Positions 4,217 through 13,945 of a stretch of DNA of 55,461 nt are shown here, one piece after another. The notes under the pieces are model-generated. The model saw only the letters and a program-made list of their open reading frames with translations, had not been told where the DNA came from and made no database searches. The first letter of the stretch is position 1. Every line of letters begins with the position of its first letter. The DNA is from a virus. Its lineage: Duplodnaviria; Heunggongvirae; Uroviricota; Caudoviricetes. The stretch is from IMG/VR virus record IMGVR_UViG_3300025011_000017; one strand, 5' to 3'. Made by a program: the position numbers and the translations under genes.

Positions 4217-5398
4217 TCATACTACAATATATTCTTTAGTGTTCTTTATATTTATGCTTGCATTTTTATCTCTATCTATTATTATTCCACACTCTTTACA
4301 AATATATTTTCTATCTGATATTTTTAAATTTTTATTTATATTACCACATTTAGAACATAGTTTACTTGAAGGGAACCACCTATTTACAATTCTTAATTCT
4401 ATATTGTTCCATAAGCACTTATAAGTTAATTGTCTTCTAAATTCATAAAAATACTGTTCTGATATTGCCTTAGATAAATGACTATTCTTAATCATTCCAG
4501 AAATATCTAAATCTTCAATGGCTATATACTCTGGTTTGGATTTTACTAGAGCATTAGTAATATTATGAATATAATTTATGCGAATATCAGTTAATATTTG
4601 ATAAATAATTCTTATTTTAGACTCTATTTTTATAATATTTTGTGTTTTAATAAATTTTTTACCATTTTTATTCATCTCATATTTCCTAGAAACTTGTCTT
4701 TGTAATCTTTTTAACTTTTTCTTTAATTTTCTTACTTTATTAGATTTATTAATGTTTTTAAAAGGATTATCAATATTACTAACAATTGCTAAATCTTTAA
4801 CCCCTAAATCCACACCAATTCCTTCTATATTAATATCTGAATAGTTATTAGAATCTGCAATTTCGCATAATACTGAAACATAATATCTTCCTGCTTTCAT
4901 TGATACAGTTCCGCTAACAACTTTTGCATTGATTGGTATATAACCTTTTTCCTTTAATTCTATAAAACCTAAAGTTGGAATTTTAATTCTATGTCTTTCA
5001 ATAGTCCAATCTGATTTATGATTTTTAGGGAAATAAATTTTAACATCTTGATTATTTTTCTTTTTAAACTTAGGAAATTTAGACCGACCTTTAAAAAAAT
5101 TCTTATATGCAATTTCTGCGTTAATAATAGCCTTCTTCCTAGCTTTAGAACCACACTCATTAATCCACTTAAATTCTTCAAGAACTTTAATTTCATTATT
5201 TATATACTTATCAAAATCATTAGCATTTATAAATGACAATTTTTTATCAATTTCACCATTCTTAAATTTTTCATAAAGTTCTTTATTTTTTGCCAAATAT
5301 GAATTATATAAGAAGCGACATATACCTATAGATTGATTAATTTTAATAATATGTTTTTTATTCAATCTAAGTTCAGTTTTGAATCCTTTAAATATTAT
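4217..5398 (-). CDS. tnpB: TnpB RNA-guided endonuclease (IS605/IS607-type), no transposase nearby
   Basis: KGFKTEL N-terminus, GVDLG, IEDL, CSKC/CKEC zinc finger, DRDKNASIN; frame extends to ATA at 5398 behind AAGGAG. Confidence 0.93.
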   Translation of the reverse strand: MIFKGFKTELRLNKKHIIKINQSIGICRFLYNSYLAKNKELYEKFKNGEIDKKLSFINANDFDKYINNEIKVLEEFKWINECGSKARKKAIINAEIAYKNFFKGRSKFPKFKKKNNQDVKIYFPKNHKSDWTIERHRIKIPTLGFIELKEKGYIPINAKVVSGTVSMKAGRYYVSVLCEIADSNNYSDINIEGIGVDLGVKDLAIVSNIDNPFKNINKSNKVRKLKKKLKRLQRQVSRKYEMNKNGKKFIKTQNIIKIESKIRIIYQILTDIRINYIHNITNALVKSKPEYIAIEDLDISGMIKNSHLSKAISEQYFYEFRRQLTYKCLWNNIELRIVNRWFPSSKLCSKCGNINKNLKISDRKYICKECGIIIDRDKNASINIKNTKEYIVV

Positions 5399-5457: not shown

Positions 5458-5925
5458 TTATTTATCACATTTATGACAATAGTTTTTAAATCCATCTTTA
5501 TTTCTGCCATCCATTCCAAATTGACTTTCTTGTTTAAAGGTTTTGCATCTTGTGCATTGTTTCCAATTTTCATTTGTTGGTAATTTGTCCCAATAGATAT
5601 ATTCGTATAACCAATTTTGTTTTGATTGATTTATTATTTTTGCAACACATGTCTTTAATATTTTAAAGATTGCTACATCTGTAACTCCAATGGAGTCTGC
5701 TATATCTAATTCCGTATAACCTAATTGATATAATTCTAATATCTTCTTAGTTCTTTCATTAAATCCGCATCCACTTATTAATAAGTCTAGATCAGCATAT
5801 ACACATACTGCTCCTATATCAAATTCCGTTTTAAATTGATATCTATATTTTAATAATCCTTTAATAGCTTTTTCATCACATAAATTAACTATATCCCATT
5901 CTACTTCTTTATTATCATTTGACAA
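5458..5925 (-). CDS. Sigma-region-4-like HTH protein with C-terminal zinc finger
   Basis: GYTELDIADSIGVT HTH; CTRC...CHKC. Confidence 0.65.
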   Translation of the reverse strand: MSNDNKEVEWDIVNLCDEKAIKGLLKYRYQFKTEFDIGAVCVYADLDLLISGCGFNERTKKILELYQLGYTELDIADSIGVTDVAIFKILKTCVAKIINQSKQNWLYEYIYWDKLPTNENWKQCTRCKTFKQESQFGMDGRNKDGFKNYCHKCDK

Positions 5926-6366: not shown

Positions 6367-6942
6367 TTATAATATATAAAATTTTTCAAAATATGCCTTT
6401 CTTTCCATCTTATTTTCCTTTTTATTTTTATGCCCTATATTTTTATTAATACTATTTGATTTATTATGAAGTTTAGTCTTTGTCCTCGAATCGGATTTAT
6501 TTTGTCCACTTATGGAATTACTTATTTCAGCAAAACCAGACAATAAGCCATCCTTGATTTTATCCTTAAAGAATTCAATTAATTTTTGCATTAAAACTTT
6601 AAAATCTAATTTGTAGTGAACAGTTGGGTTTCCGTGAATATCCTTAAAAACTCTTGTTTCTAAAATACCCATGCAACTAAAAAAATATCTAGCTTTATCA
6701 ACAGCGTATCTCGATAATTTAGCCACATCTTTCCAGCGCTTAGTAGGAATAGGTTCAAACTCCTCACGATCATCTGTCCAAAATATTAATTGAGACAAAA
6801 ATCTTGCGTTATCAAATGAGTCGTTTGAAAAAGGTACTAAATCACCTGCAACAGCTAATAAGGATGAATATCCTAATGATGTCTTTAAGAAGTCAAAAAC
6901 TTTTTGTTGGGCTTTCATATAAAAATTCCTCTTTTCTAGCAT
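6367..6942 (-). CDS. Putative replication initiator (winged-helix)
   Basis: FLSQLIFW motif, HTH-like segment, basic low-complexity tail, antisense-RNA-type leader. Confidence 0.5.
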   Translation of the reverse strand: MLEKRNFYMKAQQKVFDFLKTSLGYSSLLAVAGDLVPFSNDSFDNARFLSQLIFWTDDREEFEPIPTKRWKDVAKLSRYAVDKARYFFSCMGILETRVFKDIHGNPTVHYKLDFKVLMQKLIEFFKDKIKDGLLSGFAEISNSISGQNKSDSRTKTKLHNKSNSINKNIGHKNKKENKMERKAYFEKFYIL

Positions 6943-6960
6943 TTTTGATAGTAGCGATGC

Positions 6961-7085
6961 TAGACAAGGGTTTTAAAATGTAGTATACTAAAAAAGTAAT
7001 CAAACATTTTAAATATCTTGTCTTCTGCGAACTTCTTAGAACTTCACTTTGGTCGGTGTAGGGTTCTAGGAAGTTTTTTATTTTT
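6961..7085 (+). ncRNA. Putative countertranscript RNA antisense to the rep leader
   Basis: TAGACA-17-TATACT (6961-6989), then long hairpin with TTGGTC loop and T-run (7030-7085). Confidence 0.6.
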
Positions 7086-7215
7086 CAAGGCGTAGTTCAA
7101 ATGAACTAAATAAGGCAGTTTGAACATATTTATCTTTAAGAATACTTATTTCTACATTGATAATCAATTCTCCTTTATTCTATAAAATTTATTTTTTAAA
7201 AAGTGGTTTTACCTA

Positions 7216-7244
7216 TTGACAAATATAAAGTAATGTTGTATAAT
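7216..7244 (+). promoter_or_regulatory. sigmaA promoter of recombinase, TAAAGTAATGT-spacer class
   Basis: TTGACA-17-TATAAT. Confidence 0.8.
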
Positions 7245-7312
7245 TGTTTTATTACTTATTATACTAATTTAATTGGTAATTGAATATAATAAATCTAAAG
7301 GAGTGTGTTAAT

Positions 7313-8245
7313 ATGGAAAACTTAGCCGTAATACATACCTATGGTGATTTTGTAAATAAATTTTTATCAGAGAGTTTTGATAGTTTAAATACTAGAAGAC
7401 AATATCGTCATGCAATACTTGAATTTTTTAGAGTAAAAAATACATATGATATAAAAATGCATATGTTAAAAATTGTTACCGTATCTATCGCCAAAAATCA
7501 TATTCATTTATTAATAGAATCTGGATTAACGAGATCAACAATTATTCAAAAAAGAAGTGCCTTATCATCTTTATTTAAAGATGTAATAGGAACTTATGAA
7601 GGTGGAATAATTTTTGCAAATCCTTGGGAAAATATTACTATATCAAAAATGATTAAACAGAACGTTGAAAAAGAAGATGATTCACCACAAGGCTATATTT
7701 TAAAAACAAACGAAATTAAACAATTATTAGATGTGTCTCTTAAAGAAAATATGAGAGATAATTTAATAATAAGAATAATTTTAAATTGTGGTTTAAGAAG
7801 AGAAGAAGTTGGAAATATCAGATTTAAAGATTTTCATCAAATAGAAAACAAAAATGGAAAATTAGATTGGTATTTAAAAATATTAGGGAAAGGAAGAAAA
7901 AAAAGAGACGTCTATATAAACGAAAATTTGGTAGATGAATTTAGCAAACTAGGTAAGTTAGGTGGAAGTAATAAGATTATATTTTGTGGAAGATATAGTA
8001 CATTAGGTTTATCTGGAGATAGAATCAATAAGATTATAAAAATATATACTAAATTATCAGGATTGCCAAATGAGATAACGGCTCATGATTTAAGACATAC
8101 TAATATAACTCATTTAGCTATTGCGGGGGCCAGTATTCAAGAGTTACAAAAACATGCAGGACATTCATCGGTCAACACTACAATGAAATATATTAATCTT
8201 GTGAACGAATATGAAAATTCTGCGGCAAAATTAGTAACTTGGTGA
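7313..8245 (+). CDS. Tyrosine recombinase (XerC/D-like), catalytic set intact
   Basis: GLRREE, GKGRK, HDLRH, AGH, TTMKY; RBS AAGGAG. Confidence 0.93.
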   Translation: MENLAVIHTYGDFVNKFLSESFDSLNTRRQYRHAILEFFRVKNTYDIKMHMLKIVTVSIAKNHIHLLIESGLTRSTIIQKRSALSSLFKDVIGTYEGGIIFANPWENITISKMIKQNVEKEDDSPQGYILKTNEIKQLLDVSLKENMRDNLIIRIILNCGLRREEVGNIRFKDFHQIENKNGKLDWYLKILGKGRKKRDVYINENLVDEFSKLGKLGGSNKIIFCGRYSTLGLSGDRINKIIKIYTKLSGLPNEITAHDLRHTNITHLAIAGASIQELQKHAGHSSVNTTMKYINLVNEYENSAAKLVTW

Positions 8246-8314
8246 TTCTAAAAAGTATAAAACTGCTATACCTTTTAGGGTAGTGGTTTTAACTATTTGA
8301 AAGGGGATAATAAA

Positions 8315-9115
8315 ATGAAAAAAATGTTAATTATTGTATTAGGATTATCTATGTTTCTTGGAGGATGTTCTGCTAATACTACTAATCCAGTTACTCCAAG
8401 CAAAGAGACAATTAAAGTCGAAGAAAAAATTCCTGAATCGTATACTATTATGATGAAAAATCTTAAAGAACAAAATTTAAATTCAACCCTAGATTTTGCC
8501 AATTTAACAATTAAAGATTTTCCTGACTCCCCATATACTTACAACGCACATATTATTAGAAGTATAATATTATGTGGTAAAATACATCCCTATATAAATA
8601 TTAGCATATATATAAACAAAGGTATGGGACATATGGGAGCATTTATAAAAGATGGAGATATTGAGATATTAGAGGGTTATATTGCACAAATTGATAAATC
8701 AAATAAATCTATTAACATTCCATTGAATGAATCTTTTAACTATATTTTAACTAATTATAATTATGAAGCAAAATCTAATAAAATAGATTTTCCTACATCA
8801 GATATTAAAATGATTTCCAAAAAAGATTATAATGGGTTTAGTTGGTTTTCAGATGTTGGGTATCCAGTCCCCAAACAATCAGACTTTGATGAAATAATTA
8901 ATAATGTATCCCCGAAAGCATTTTATTTATATATGAACAATGTAGAAACATCAGGAGAAATTAATTATCCTAAATATTTTTTGATTGCATCATATGCAAC
9001 ATCAGACAAAGAGTTAGAGAAAAGATTATTAAATAAAGTTATAGAACTTACGGAAGAAGATAAATATAATGAATCTAGAATTGAAGCAGAAAAAGGTTTA
9101 AATAATTTATTATAA
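8315..9115 (+). CDS. Lipoprotein
   Basis: Signal peptide MKKMLIIVLGLSMFLGGC with lipobox. Confidence 0.8.
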   Translation: MKKMLIIVLGLSMFLGGCSANTTNPVTPSKETIKVEEKIPESYTIMMKNLKEQNLNSTLDFANLTIKDFPDSPYTYNAHIIRSIILCGKIHPYINISIYINKGMGHMGAFIKDGDIEILEGYIAQIDKSNKSINIPLNESFNYILTNYNYEAKSNKIDFPTSDIKMISKKDYNGFSWFSDVGYPVPKQSDFDEIINNVSPKAFYLYMNNVETSGEINYPKYFLIASYATSDKELEKRLLNKVIELTEEDKYNESRIEAEKGLNNLL

Positions 9116-9124
9116 AATTAGAAA

Positions 9125-9153
9125 TACCCTCTACTTTATGTAGAGGGTATTTT
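9125..9153. terminator. Bidirectional terminator between convergent genes
   Basis: TACCCTCTAC/GTAGAGGGTA hairpin. Confidence 0.75.
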
Positions 9154-9156
9154 AAA

Positions 9157-9843
9157 TTATATTAATAAAGGTAAGAGTTTTAATACTAACAGTGCAGTTC
9201 CGCTTAATATAAGCGTATTTCCGAAAAGCGTTATAGCTTGCGTTGTGTCGTTATTTGACGTTGGAACTGGCTTGTCATCTGGTAATTCATTTATATCTAT
9301 AAAGTTTCCTTTTATCACCTCCATATATTTTTGAAAATTATCATTATTCTTAAAGTGATCAATGATCTCCACTCTTACTTTTTCTTTTATATTACCTTCT
9401 GGAGTTATTTCCCTTTCATAGCTTAATATATCTTTAGAATTTGAATTTGAATTAGATCTATTATTAGCAGGAGATTTACCATTTTTCCAACGATCTTTAA
9501 TCCTAGTAGTAATTGCCTTAGAAATATTATCTATCTTTCCCCCATCTTTTCCTATTACAGAAGCGTTAATTTGATATCCTTCTGGAAGACCTATAACAAT
9601 TTGTTTATTTGGAACAATTTGTGACCACATATTCAAACTATAAGCCCCCATTTTAGGATCATTTTCAGACCAAAACAATACTGTTTGAGAAGGATTATTA
9701 CTTGGATAAGGATATAGATAAAATAAATCAGATGAAGAAGCTTGTGCTTTAAAAGGATTGGATAAACTTAGGCCAATCATAATAAGAATTGTAGCAATGG
9801 TAAGGGTTTGTTTAATAGAGGTTTTCTTTAAAACTATAATCAT
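9157..9843 (-). CDS. Exported protein with C-terminal membrane anchor
   Basis: Signal peptide ending AQA; hydrophobic C-terminus. Confidence 0.7.
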   Translation of the reverse strand: MIIVLKKTSIKQTLTIATILIMIGLSLSNPFKAQASSSDLFYLYPYPSNNPSQTVLFWSENDPKMGAYSLNMWSQIVPNKQIVIGLPEGYQINASVIGKDGGKIDNISKAITTRIKDRWKNGKSPANNRSNSNSNSKDILSYEREITPEGNIKEKVRVEIIDHFKNNDNFQKYMEVIKGNFIDINELPDDKPVPTSNNDTTQAITLFGNTLILSGTALLVLKLLPLLI

Positions 9844-9864
9844 ATTAAATTACTCCCTTCAATT

Positions 9865-10092
9865 TTAGGATTTTTCAACAACGATCCCTTTTAGTTTTAA
9901 AAATAAAAATTCTGCTTCTAAGATTCTAGATATAACTTCCCTATCTACTCCAGTTAATTTTAAAGTAAATTCAATAAGTTCTTCATCATCAAAAAACAAT
10001 TCCCTTTTAATAGAATCTTTAACAACATTTCTAATAATTTGCTTTTTTAAATTATCAAATAATTCATTAATCAAATTAATAACTCCTTTCAC
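9865..10092 (-). CDS. Small hypothetical protein
   Basis: In operon, RBS AAAGGAG. Confidence 0.6.
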   Translation of the reverse strand: MKGVINLINELFDNLKKQIIRNVVKDSIKRELFFDDEELIEFTLKLTGVDREVISRILEAEFLFLKLKGIVVEKS

Positions 10093-10097
10093 TAAAT

Positions 10098-10784
10098 TTA
10101 TTTAAATAAATACCTTAAGGGATCAACGGCCTTGCCTCCAAATCTGACTTCGAAGTGAAGATGTGAACCACTAGAATTCCCAGTATTACCTGAAAGAGCA
10201 ATAATATCTTTTACATGTACAAGATTCCATTTTTTAACTCTAATTTCTGAACAATGTGCATATAAAGTTTGAAACCCTCCTTCATGGTCTACAATGATGT
10301 AATTGCCATAAACGCTATTAGGATCTAATTTTATTTCACTTACCTTCCCTTCAAGAGTAGCAATAATAGGAGTCCCTGTATCGCAAGCAATATCAATTCC
10401 ATGATGGTTCGCTCCGTCAAAATATTGAGTTATAATTGGAGCCTTAATTCCAATTAGAGGAAATTCTAAATGCTTATCAAGTAATGTTGCTTTTGCTCCA
10501 AAATTTAAAATTGGAGAATTAAGAAATTTTGAGGCAAAAGTATTTGTGTCATCTCTTGCCTCTCCAACAACTTTAATAGCATTTGTTAAACTTTGCACAT
10601 CTTGACGAGCCTCTGACATACTTTGACCTATTTTAGAAAATCCTGGAAAAACGATCGAAAAGAAGAGAACTATAGCTACTGCTTTAAATATCCTAGCTAT
10701 ATACTTTTGACCTAGTTCATAAATGATTACATAAGTTATATACAAAGTCACCCCTGTCTTTATACAAGTAACAATGAACTCCAT
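10098..10784 (-). CDS. Membrane-anchored M23 peptidase with SpoIIIAC/AD-like N-terminal helices
   Basis: HHGID, LYAH, GNTGNSSGSHLHFE; two N-terminal TM segments. Confidence 0.85.
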   Translation of the reverse strand: MEFIVTCIKTGVTLYITYVIIYELGQKYIARIFKAVAIVLFFSIVFPGFSKIGQSMSEARQDVQSLTNAIKVVGEARDDTNTFASKFLNSPILNFGAKATLLDKHLEFPLIGIKAPIITQYFDGANHHGIDIACDTGTPIIATLEGKVSEIKLDPNSVYGNYIIVDHEGGFQTLYAHCSEIRVKKWNLVHVKDIIALSGNTGNSSGSHLHFEVRFGGKAVDPLRYLFK

Positions 10785-10798
10785 AGTAAATACACCTC

Positions 10799-10993
10799 TT
10801 AAAAACTAGAATAAGCTTTAACGATACCTGTTGCCTTTGTGATATCAACGAAAGCAAGAACTAAAACGGCAACTAAACATCCAAGTCTAACATATGGAAT
10901 ATACTCCCCCTTGCCAATCATGCGAACTATATGTTCAGAGCCAAAAGCAAATATAGCAATATCCAAATATTTTGTTACATTAGCATCAACCAT
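10799..10993 (-). CDS. SpoIIIAC-like small membrane protein
   Basis: 64 aa, two TM helices joined by GKGEY, ends VKAYSSF. Confidence 0.55.
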   Translation of the reverse strand: MVDANVTKYLDIAIFAFGSEHIVRMIGKGEYIPYVRLGCLVAVLVLAFVDITKATGIVKAYSSF

Positions 10994-11011
10994 AAAATTT
11001 AACCTCCTTAA

Positions 11012-11236
11012 TCAGACTTTACAATTTAAAAATTCCAAAATTTTAAATGAGTTATGACCATCAATTCTAAAACCATCTAAAAGATAATAAAAATCTTTAC
11101 CATGAGTTAAATCTAAACCGTAAGCAGTAAAAACATAATGGAGATTAACTGCCAATTTGTGAGAAATAAAAGCAAGTGCTAATAGTGGAATTAGTTTAAA
11201 AATATTTCTTACAATTTTATTCAAAATAATCACCAT
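11012..11236 (-). CDS. Small membrane protein
   Basis: In operon, one hydrophobic segment. Confidence 0.5.
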   Translation of the reverse strand: MVIILNKIVRNIFKLIPLLALAFISHKLAVNLHYVFTAYGLDLTHGKDFYYLLDGFRIDGHNSFKILEFLNCKV

Positions 11237-11284
11237 CCTAAATAATGATATAAATCAATAAGAAAAGACAATTTTAGATGGAAA

Positions 11285-12013
11285 TCAGGTAACTTTAGCT
11301 AAATTTAGTGCAATATTAGGATGTTTTTTATGTGCCATTTCGGTACATAATTCTTTAAGCTTAGAGATAGACATAACCTGTACTTTATACCCATAAACCT
11401 TTTCGTTTCGGACATGAGAAATTATTCGTTCCCTATCACCAGTAGTAACAATAATTAAACTAAAAGTCTGATCCATAGAAGGGTCTACCCAATAATAAGA
11501 TTTTCTGCTCTCCAATTTATCATCAAATATCTTTTTGAACAAAGTGTCATACTTAGGAATTTTGTCAAATCCATTCCCTGATTCTTCACGATGAAATTCA
11601 ATAAAATAAAAATGATTTTTAGAAGCATAGTCCTTAATTATCACAAAAGCATCAGGTTCAACGATTGGTTCATAGATACGAGGTTCAACACTGAAAGATT
11701 GTAACTTCATATCCTCATCATTTTTTAATTTAAAATAAGTATACATCCAGTTTACTCCGACCCTGTGTTCAACTCGTTTGGGTTGCTTCTCTAAGTAATA
11801 AAAATATGGGGTAAGCATCGAAAAACGATCTCTTTTAATTCTTTTAGATTTAACTAAATCTCTTAACTTACGACAACACATTTCATAGCTTACCTCTGGA
11901 CAAGTAAGTAAATGGATTTGATTGGTATCCATAACTGTTCTTGTCTCCAGAAGTCCTAGAATTTGCTGATCTCGGTAGTATCCCTTTGCGTGAGTAGATA
12001 TCTGTTTGGTCAT
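11285..12013 (-). CDS. Replication-relaxation family protein
   Basis: RDQQIL N-terminal HTH, EHRVGVN, EPDAF, FIEF, KIPKY; follows FtsK gene. Confidence 0.75.
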   Translation of the reverse strand: MTKQISTHAKGYYRDQQILGLLETRTVMDTNQIHLLTCPEVSYEMCCRKLRDLVKSKRIKRDRFSMLTPYFYYLEKQPKRVEHRVGVNWMYTYFKLKNDEDMKLQSFSVEPRIYEPIVEPDAFVIIKDYASKNHFYFIEFHREESGNGFDKIPKYDTLFKKIFDDKLESRKSYYWVDPSMDQTFSLIIVTTGDRERIISHVRNEKVYGYKVQVMSISKLKELCTEMAHKKHPNIALNLAKVT

Positions 12014-13280
12014 GTATATTAGCACCCCCATCATAATAAAATTTTTCTGGAATTTGATCAAGGTCATCTAAAAGAGAATTATATAACTTCTCATCCTCCT
12101 TACTCTCATCTGGATCTGGAAAATAAAGAGTTTGAATTTCTTCGCTAACATCCCATTCAAATATTGCTCTACCTGCAAACTTGGCTAGATTTGCCGCACG
12201 TCCATCCTTCATTGCCATACGAGCAGTATTTGCATCTGCAACACGCATACCTATGGTGGCCTCGAACATTGCTTGTAGATCCTTAAAAGATACTTTCTTA
12301 GAGATAGTATGTGAAGGACGTTGAGTTGCACCGATAATACAAAATCCTTGACTTCTACCTATGCTTGATAATTTCTGCAAGAGTGAAAATGCTTCTGGAC
12401 ACTCGTTGGCAAGTAATGCTAATTCATCAACAATAATAACAATAAACGGCATACCATCTTTATTTTTCTTCAACCAACCAGTAAACTTACGAGAATCATC
12501 ATTTTCCATAATCAATGCCCTACGTTCGTTTTCTTGGACAAGTTGTCGAAATAGTATTAATGATTCTTCTGGAGTTCTAGCATATACTCCTCCATATTTC
12601 TTAATCCACTTGAACTCTCCAATTTTTAAATCAATCATAGCAACAATAACTTTAGGATTTAATAAACGATTTTTATTTAATTTTAAAAGAGAATAAGCAG
12701 AGGAATGTAAAACATTAGATTTACCTGAATTTGGTATTCCTATAAGAAGTAAATTAATAATCTTTGATAAGTCTTTGACCAAAATTCCTTCAATAACAGT
12801 AAACCCTAAAGGTAAAGGAAGATGCATAGGATTTTTTTTCAAACTGGTGTAATCAGTAGGATTGAACTCATAGTTGTATTTCTTTTTTAGCCGTTTATTA
12901 GTGATAGTCATTTTGACTGATCTGCCTTCGTGTACTAATTGACACGATCCTCCAACCGAATCTGCAAAAGTTTGTTCATGAGACTCGAATTCTGAATAAG
13001 GTATATCTTCTGGAAGATGAATAATTAAAAGCCAAACAGTTTCAACATTTATAGAACGTGGTTTATATTTATGGACAAGCTTTTGGAGTTTGGTTGGGTT
13101 AGTAGGTTCTTCAGGATACAAGAGTATTCGTTTGTGGATAAATGGTTTCAGTTCACGATGCTTCCATATTCCATCAATAGAAGTTTCTACTTTCCCAACG
13201 ATTGCATGATGTAGGCGTTTTACTTTAGTTAATTCGGCGTGAAATATTTCTCCTATAAGGGTGCTATCATTGCACTTCAT
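11883..13280 (-). CDS. FtsK/SpoIIIE-family ATPase
   Basis: GIPNSGKS, IDLK, IIVDEL, GRSQG, ATQRP; RBS GGGGGAGG before ATG 13280. Confidence 0.92.
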   Translation of the reverse strand: MKCNDSTLIGEIFHAELTKVKRLHHAIVGKVETSIDGIWKHRELKPFIHKRILLYPEEPTNPTKLQKLVHKYKPRSINVETVWLLIIHLPEDIPYSEFESHEQTFADSVGGSCQLVHEGRSVKMTITNKRLKKKYNYEFNPTDYTSLKKNPMHLPLPLGFTVIEGILVKDLSKIINLLLIGIPNSGKSNVLHSSAYSLLKLNKNRLLNPKVIVAMIDLKIGEFKWIKKYGGVYARTPEESLILFRQLVQENERRALIMENDDSRKFTGWLKKNKDGMPFIVIIVDELALLANECPEAFSLLQKLSSIGRSQGFCIIGATQRPSHTISKKVSFKDLQAMFEATIGMRVADANTARMAMKDGRAANLAKFAGRAIFEWDVSEEIQTLYFPDPDESKEDEKLYNSLLDDLDQIPEKFYYDGGANIHDQTDIYSRKGILPRSANSRTSGDKNSYGYQSNPFTYLSRGKL

Positions 13281-13819
13281 TTGTTCAATACCTCCCCCAC
13301 TAGTTAGTTCATTAATATAGGTGTCGATTGTAAGTTCAAACGAACTATAGCACGGAATGGACAAGAAGAAAAATAACGAAGAAGAGAATTGAGATGTAAT
13401 ACTTTACATTTCAATTGTATGAAGATATCGGCTAGATATAACTTAAAGAGTAATTGTTAAATATTGGCGATGACAGACAATGTAAGCTCAAAAAATTGAT
13501 ATTAGCTTTAGAAAGCTTGGAAATGCTACATAATTTAAAGTGATAGAAAACTGAAATTATAATAGTAATAATAATAAAAAGATGATAAAGAAGTGGTAAA
13601 AAATAGAGGTGTGATAAAATAGAGAGGTGTGGTAAAATTATAGTTACACCCCCTTACCCCTGCCCGGTATCATTTTGAATTTGTTTGTATCCCCCTCTTA
13701 TTGATTATTGATATTGAATTTAACGTCATTTAAGGCCAAATAAGCTTGTTTTATTGCACTTGATAATTGACGTTATACGGACATAGGAATTTTAAGGCTA
13801 AGTAAGATTAATTCTTCAA

Positions 13820-13835
13820 TGTTCCACGTGGAACA
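13820..13835. promoter_or_regulatory. parS: parS (Spo0J/ParB site)
   Basis: Perfect palindrome TGTTCCACGTGGAACA. Confidence 0.88.
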
Positions 13836-13908: not shown

Positions 13909-13945
13909 ATGTTCATATGAACATAAAAAATGTTCATATGAACAT
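13909..13945. repeat. Two tandem 16-bp palindromes ATGTTCATATGAACAT
   Basis: Copies at 13909-13924 and 13930-13945. Confidence 0.85.

Follow-up and report, generated by a model that had tools for sequence, protein, structure and literature searches.

SpoIIIAC-like membrane hairpins in a phage DNA translocation operon

The closest described relatives of the locus studied here are the DNA translocation operons of phages, namely orf200-207 of 0305phi8-36 and those of SPO1, GBSV1 and Gamma/Wbeta, whose function is untested (PMC3357382); Pathria et al. (2012) proposed that such operons serve cell-to-cell spread, and deletion of a comparable operon gave no plaque or laboratory phenotype (PMC3357382). 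Phage spoIIIE homologues and the idea of spore entrapment are also in print (PMC4528723, PMC10294663), and a SpoIIIE homologue marks the Bacillus Bastille-like phages (PMC4528723). Our study concerns an operon in the Caudoviricetes virus record IMGVR_UViG_3300025011_000017, whose whole stretch of 55,461 nucleotides is called the window below. This module has a MobC-related relaxase gene adjoining the gene of an anchorless translocase ATPase, together with separate membrane protein genes, and it belongs to a phage, as in the operon of Pathria et al. (PMC3357382), of which it is a variant. It differs from the published cases in its membrane parts, which are likely homologues of SpoIIIAC, whereas the Bacillus hairpins that we tested are unrelated or VirB2-like, and also in its optional fused M23 peptidase and surface protein and in its clostridial hosts. 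In the literature searched (subscription papers lie mostly outside it) we came across no account of mobile elements with SpoIIIAC homologues, and the link appears to be new.

Probable SpoIIIAC homology of the membrane hairpins

The module encodes two families of two-helix membrane hairpins, one a free-standing protein of 64 amino acids (aa) and the other the N-terminus of the M23 peptidase. A reading of the window made from its sequence only, without database searches, had noted by eye that the 64-aa protein resembles SpoIIIAC. For the window protein alone this did not hold, as single-sequence searches of Pfam, NCBIfam, PHROG and Atlas returned no SpoIIIAC match; for its family it did. Using SpoIIIAC and SpoIIIAD reference alignments that we built from genomes, HHalign matched the 64-aa family to SpoIIIAC end to end, over 59-60 columns (57-60 when the other family is included), at 91-94% (score 40.7 at 94%), compared with 95% and a score of 43.4 for the true paralogues SpoIIIAC and SpoIIIAD and a score of 15 or less for reversed and column-shuffled controls. 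Profile searches point the same way in both directions: the hidden Markov model (HMM) of the 64-aa family ranked 30 SpoIIIAC proteins above all others among 564 open reading frames (ORFs) with multiple transmembrane (TM) segments, and the SpoIIIAC HMM reciprocally recovered the phage members among SpoIIIAD proteins.

The likeness of the helices preceding the M23 domain to the 64-aa protein, also proposed in the sequence-only reading, is borne out, and these helices form a second SpoIIIAC-like family. With broader alignments, HHalign placed it at 93% with SpoIIIAC, 74% with the N-terminal half of SpoIIIAD, 88-92% with the 64-aa family and 5% with NrfD. The HMMs of both hairpin families put SpoIIIAC above every other multi-TM ORF, and in a blind search of a 3-Mb genome the hairpin HMM picked out the host spoIIIAC. 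Among single members, the 64-aa-family hairpin of locus L013 (loci are cited by such numbers) had TIGR02848 as the best of 18,950 models (E 2.7e-6), and for three members of the second family TIGR02848 was the sole NCBIfam match (E 0.03-0.09). It is thus likely, from these sequence comparisons, that the hairpins share real ancestry with SpoIIIAC, as homologues and not as members by curated cut-off. The identity of the hairpins as VirB2/TrbC pilins was also considered and rejected, with HHalign values of at most 3% against the PF04956 and PF18895 alignments (at most 1.4% for the 64-aa family) and scores of 14 or less. The upstream hairpins of Bacillus phages showed no link to SpoIIIAC, in a comparison that used a very thin alignment.

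The SpoIIIA-SpoIIQ complex between mother cell and forespore (PMC2703783) offers a natural comparison. The phage modules mostly carry their hairpins in tandem, as in spoIIIAC-AD, and these AC/AD-like hairpins are of equal size and have an M23-fold neighbour. In contrast to that complex, the phage module is without AA, AB and AE-AH, its ATPase is of the FtsK type and not of the PilB/VirB11 type, its M23 domain is not specifically SpoIIQ, and no sigmaE promoter was found. The spoIIIAA-AH operon context is absent from the mapped loci, where the neighbours are FtsK, the nuclease and M23.

The motor, its nuclease partner and the operon

The ATPase (465 aa) has intact Walker A, Walker B and arginine finger motifs in the family alignment and consists of the motor domain PF01580 only, with neither the N-terminal membrane domain (4TM) nor the gamma domain and with no hydrophobic N-terminus. 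Its nearest solved structures are those of a DNA translocase coupling protein (6O1W/X/Z, E 2e-22), which we take to be TcpA (see PMC12857230), followed by FtsK (E 8e-20). Judged by its sequence, it is a soluble FtsK/TcpA-type translocase of double-stranded DNA (dsDNA). It shares an intact motor domain with the chromosomal FtsK/SpoIIIE proteins and with TcpA of pCW3, and differs from them in lacking the N-terminal TM and gamma domains, in having a MOB_C-type nuclease as partner and in that no VirB4-type type IV secretion system (T4SS) was found with it, in the window or in three related, incomplete phage records. A scan of genome contigs gave generic FtsK only.

The partner, noted earlier as a Replic_Relax protein, belongs to a family in which 12 of 14 members match PF13814. 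Its structure model (mean predicted local distance difference test, pLDDT, 87) combines an N-terminal winged helix with a PD-(D/E)xK restriction-nuclease fold, and matches FokI (E 3e-4) and the nickase Nt.BspD6I (Z 9.1, root-mean-square deviation 3.7, 133 aligned). Residues D124, E142, K154 and Y158 are invariant in the family. Set against the MOB_C catalytic triad motif D-x(6-17)-E-x-E, the D and the first E are invariant, the third position is variable and a later E is nearly invariant. PF13814 is the MOB_C relaxase class (PMC5357655, PMC12857230), and MOB_C relaxases are PD-(D/E)xK nucleases (PMC3424549, PMC12857230). By family score and by predicted fold, the protein is a MOB_C-type winged helix-turn-helix (wHTH) nuclease. 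Like pAD1 TraX and CloDF13 MobC it joins a wHTH to a PD-(D/E)xK fold and scores above the Pfam cut-off; unlike them it has H, T, N or D instead of E at an acidic catalytic position, its partner is FtsK-like and not VirD4-like, and no origin of transfer (oriT) was identified upstream. Conserved oriT-like repeats were not found upstream of the modules, the repeat test being not significant; a lag of 12 was the best repeat lag in 11 of 37 upstream regions. Tandem repeats of 12 bp stand right before the ftsK ribosome-binding site in L170 (upstream of 875) and L171 (upstream of 7001).

The order ATPase, nuclease, hairpin, M23 and 228-aa protein is repeated in about 30 viral or metagenomic loci, which are partly redundant, and these lie in differing backbones, with ParA or ParM neighbours, a serine recombinase or tyrosine integrases. 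The 27 genome-borne loci all have the ATPase and the nuclease; about 19 have the small hairpin, 7 the full M23 and 4 the 228-aa protein, and at least 8 carry the second hairpin without M23. From these counts we therefore take the core to be motor, nuclease and hairpin(s); the M23 domain, parS and the 228-aa protein may each be missing. Sequence comparison and structure modelling together establish this predicted core as an intact anchorless FtsK/TcpA-type motor, a MOB_C-type wHTH-nuclease and two hairpins that are likely SpoIIIAC homologues. In one subfamily (L275-L278, L283) hairpins are absent and an exported protein of roughly 102 aa stands 3' of the nuclease; similar proteins occur alongside hairpins elsewhere (L269:6116-6547, L279:7528-7929).

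In the window, all the operon parts named in the sequence-only reading were located on the minus strand by sequence and profile searches, together with two further ORFs inside the operon, of 74 aa (11236-11012) and 69-75 aa (10092-9865). The features are as follows.

9121..9153, no strand: bidirectional intrinsic terminator, closing the operon
9157..9843, minus: 228-aa surface-anchored protein, with signal-peptide-like N-terminus and C-terminal hydrophobic anchor
9865..10092, minus: accessory 69-75-aa ORF, found in 9 retrieved loci only
10098..10784, minus: hairpin, helical linker and M23 peptidase (PF01551 E 5e-30)
10799..10993, minus: 64-aa two-helix membrane hairpin, probable remote SpoIIIAC homologue (family-level HHalign)
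11012..11236, minus: orphan 74-aa ORF, a lineage-specific 228-bp insertion
about 11285..12013, minus: Replic_Relax/MOB_C-type protein (PF13814, 26.9 bits against a cut-off of 25.3), overlapping the ftsK end
11883..13280, minus: FtsK_SpoIIIE ATPase, 465 aa, ATG start, GGAGG ribosome-binding site (PF01580 E 2e-11)
13820..13835, no strand: parS-type perfect 16-bp palindrome, one mismatch to the Spo0J consensus

The operon is real, and purifying selection acts on it. In comparison with a relative of 82% identity (L006/L018), the ratio of nonsynonymous to synonymous substitution rates is 0.17 for the ATPase gene, 0.05 for the nuclease, 0.29 for the 69-75-aa ORF and 0.14 for the 228-aa protein, with M23 inside the same range of 0.05-0.29, and the 64-aa protein is identical in the two phages. 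The 74-aa ORF is absent from this relative and has no relatives among the retrieved loci. At L018:6280-6552 a hairpin gene is frameshifted to give 90 aa, possibly through an assembly error.

The M23 catalytic motifs HxxxD and HxH are complete in the alignment. Its proposed likeness to SpoIIQ proved not to be specific, and the domain is optional. The 228-aa protein, described earlier as exported, has a signal-peptide-like N-terminus and also a hydrophobic anchor at its C-terminus, which that description omitted. It had no Pfam, PHROG or NCBIfam match, and its structure model was poor (pLDDT 53) and gave no fold match.

Where the module may act

Our preferred reading, which we hold tentatively, is that the module is a membrane-docked dsDNA translocation unit of the phage that acts at sporulation membranes; this place of action is favoured because of the SpoIIIAC homology and the bias of the hosts. 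The nuclease would bind a site on the phage DNA, nick or cut there and pass the DNA to the motor hexamer, and the hairpins would furnish the missing motor anchor or pore, or else tether the motor to the host's SpoIIIA-SpoIIQ complex, in the mother-cell membrane that surrounds the forespore. Where present, M23 might locally thin the septal peptidoglycan. Phage DNA inside the doomed mother cell, whether it came in there or was copied there, could in this way reach the forespore, the payoff being its rescue from the mother cell, and in the present lineage parS may add polar positioning based on host Spo0J. Phage phi29, which likewise has a host-type parS on its DNA (PMC2731898), is not known to use more than host machinery for its parS/Spo0J spore entrapment, whereas here a lineage-specific parS accompanies a phage-encoded motor. 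A more exact version, in which a clostridial phage or prophage machine has SpoIIIAC-like subunits that join or mimic the channel between mother cell and forespore and pumps the genome into the forespore after septation, is more doubtful. If it were true, spore entry would be active and not passive entrapment, and the module would be the first found home of SpoIIIAC homologues outside spoIIIA operons; action at the forespore would change the view of phage persistence in spore banks. The module bears on what SpoIIIAC/AD do, on how the SpoIIIA-SpoIIQ channel arose and on what the FtsK-relaxase pair of many Bacillota phages is for, and its four-gene unit of AC-like hairpins and DNA motor makes a small test system, for which Desulfitobacterium hafniense Y51 is a culturable carrier.

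The host bias is seen in genomes and in cultured phages. Within one clostridial class 16 of 112 genomes have the nuclease, as do 7 of 401 in a sample of the whole phylum, and spoIIIAC/AD is present in every one of the 22 host genomes that carry the nuclease, compared with 127 of 151 (84%) in the phylum sample, so that the expected restriction to spore formers so far holds. Named carriers are D. hafniense Y51, in a prophage region, and a Desulfosporosinus metagenome-assembled genome, and the host of the window phage is inferred to be a spore-forming clostridium. Cultured phages that carry the related ATPase-nuclease pair are almost all phages of Bacillaceae (23 of 26 records), in agreement with the earlier attribution of the pair to Bacillus phages. 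The wider ATPase family extends to mycobacteriophages, where no relaxase-sized gene lies next to it.

It is important to consider the results that weigh against action at sporulation membranes, beginning with the homology itself. No member reaches the curated SpoIIIAC cut-offs, the best values being 27.7 bits against 56.65 for TIGR02848 and 18.9 against 24 for PF06686, and the N-terminal hairpin of NrfD-like proteins (L287-L290, identified by eye) matches the 64-aa family at 85-90%, equal to SpoIIIAC at the same alignment depth. We judge NrfD to be a decoy because it matches neither SpoIIIAC (0.5%) nor the second hairpin family (5%) and its match spans only part of a 300-aa protein. None of the other SpoIIIA subunits (SpoIIIAA/AB/AE-AH) is present. 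The M23 domain scores 65.7 bits with the SpoIIQ model NF053738, whose cut-off is 250, and does better with seven other M23 models, in a comparison that left out clostridial SpoIIQ; most genome-borne modules have no M23. Nearly all other scanned modules lack a neighbouring parS. No conserved promoter emerged with a clostridial sigmaE matrix trained on 16 spoIIIAA promoters, with 1 of the 37 upstream regions reaching p<0.05, and CATA-N3-T boxes, in 16 of 37 regions against 11.4 expected, are weakly enriched and not significantly so. The count of 22 out of 22 gives only modest support, since the host genomes are related and not independent, and the pair is also carried by a few phages labelled Staphylococcus, though these phages appear to be Bacillus-derived. 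Finally, many modules lie in integrated prophages, which enter the spore with the chromosome anyway.

The strongest rival, which is possible though we doubt it, is a VirB4-independent transfer of DNA between vegetative cells, or mobilisation through a helper T4SS. The parts would then be a MOB_C relaxase, a TcpA-like coupling protein, a hairpin pore, an M23 wall hydrolase and a 228-aa adhesin, and the SpoIIIAC homology would, with the same doubt, reflect common ancestry of a pore subunit and not a common place of action. The relaxase class of PF13814 (PMC5357655, PMC12857230), the conjugative coupling protein as nearest structure of the ATPase, the VirB2-like pilin that fills the membrane slot in Andromedavirus-type phages (PMC9658697) and the earlier proposal of cell-to-cell spread (PMC3357382) speak for it, and a surface-anchored protein with an M23 of complete catalytic motifs would suit a mating junction. 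The Streptomyces TraB/Spd system of dsDNA transfer (PMC12857230) likewise has an FtsK-like motor, small membrane proteins and no VirB4, but TraB brings a membrane anchor and a DNA-reading domain of its own and works without a relaxase. Against transfer, the hairpins are not pilins, oriT-like repeats were not found and the spore-former bias is left unexplained; VirB4 is also missing, as first remarked, both from the window, whose longest ORF (493 aa) is too short for it and beyond which the ~180-kb genome was not searched, and from three related, incomplete phage records. By sequence, spore entry and cell-to-cell transfer are indistinguishable.

Host interference or exclusion is unlikely; here sporulation would be altered by hairpins that poison or retune the SpoIIIA-SpoIIQ channel, or the motor and nuclease would together break down DNA, either incoming or of the host. 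SpoIIIAC homology without the remaining channel subunits and a nuclease fold similar to FokI would fit it, and ATPase-nuclease pairs of the FtsK/HerA superfamily are known in defence systems. The hairpins, however, are tightly co-conserved with the DNA motor and nuclease and do not occur alone, and a comparable operon was deleted without a plaque phenotype (PMC3357382). Least probable is maintenance of an extrachromosomal prophage, with motor and nuclease clearing or resolving phage DNA at the division septum together with neighbouring tyrosine recombinase, Rep and Par genes: a Rep-like gene and an Xer-like recombinase do stand beside the module here, several relatives have ParA or ParM next to it and the same reading is given in PMC9658697, but the module is also found in integrated prophages and virulent phages, has variable orientation and neighbours, and would have no need of M23 or a surface protein.

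Upstream region and neighbouring genes

The parS palindrome is the only such site in the window and lies 540 bp from the ftsK start, as the sequence-only reading had it; it is kept at 15 of 16 positions in the 82%-identical sister phage, amid otherwise diverged DNA. As a general feature of the module it is rejected, since it flanks the module in this lineage only, and one related phage has a near-parS site elsewhere, away from the module. Two 14-bp palindromes resembling a shortened parS (13910-13923 and 13931-13944) are not at that place in sister phage L006. The upstream region of the window has a CATACAAT (CATAC-type -10) box at -141 with a 13-nt spacer, found at about -185 in one clade. 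In loci L267-L286 and L309-L314 a 70-aa HTH_3 gene and a small ribbon-helix-helix-like gene often stand 5' of the ATPase, as possible regulators or DNA adaptors.

Contigs of 145-183 kb from groundwater metagenomes match the window DNA. The phage status of these elements comes from phage-family genes and from structural genes in relatives, no structural (virion) gene having been identified within the window. A Rep-like gene (PHROG DnaD/O-like, E 2e-7) and the Xer-like tyrosine recombinase adjoin the module at 6367-8245 and are retained in the sister phage, which suggests a plasmid-like prophage state. Positions 5458-5925 match phrog_5767, which is labelled sigma factor, over its C-terminal part (E 5e-19), and sigma70_r2 had zero matches in four related phage records. 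An IS605-type TnpB without transposase (4217-5365) is absent from sister phage L018. A lipoprotein gene (8297-9115) is convergent on the operon, and unrelated lipoprotein-like or exported genes lie 3' of the module in many relatives (L220, L267, L271, L272, L280, L313).

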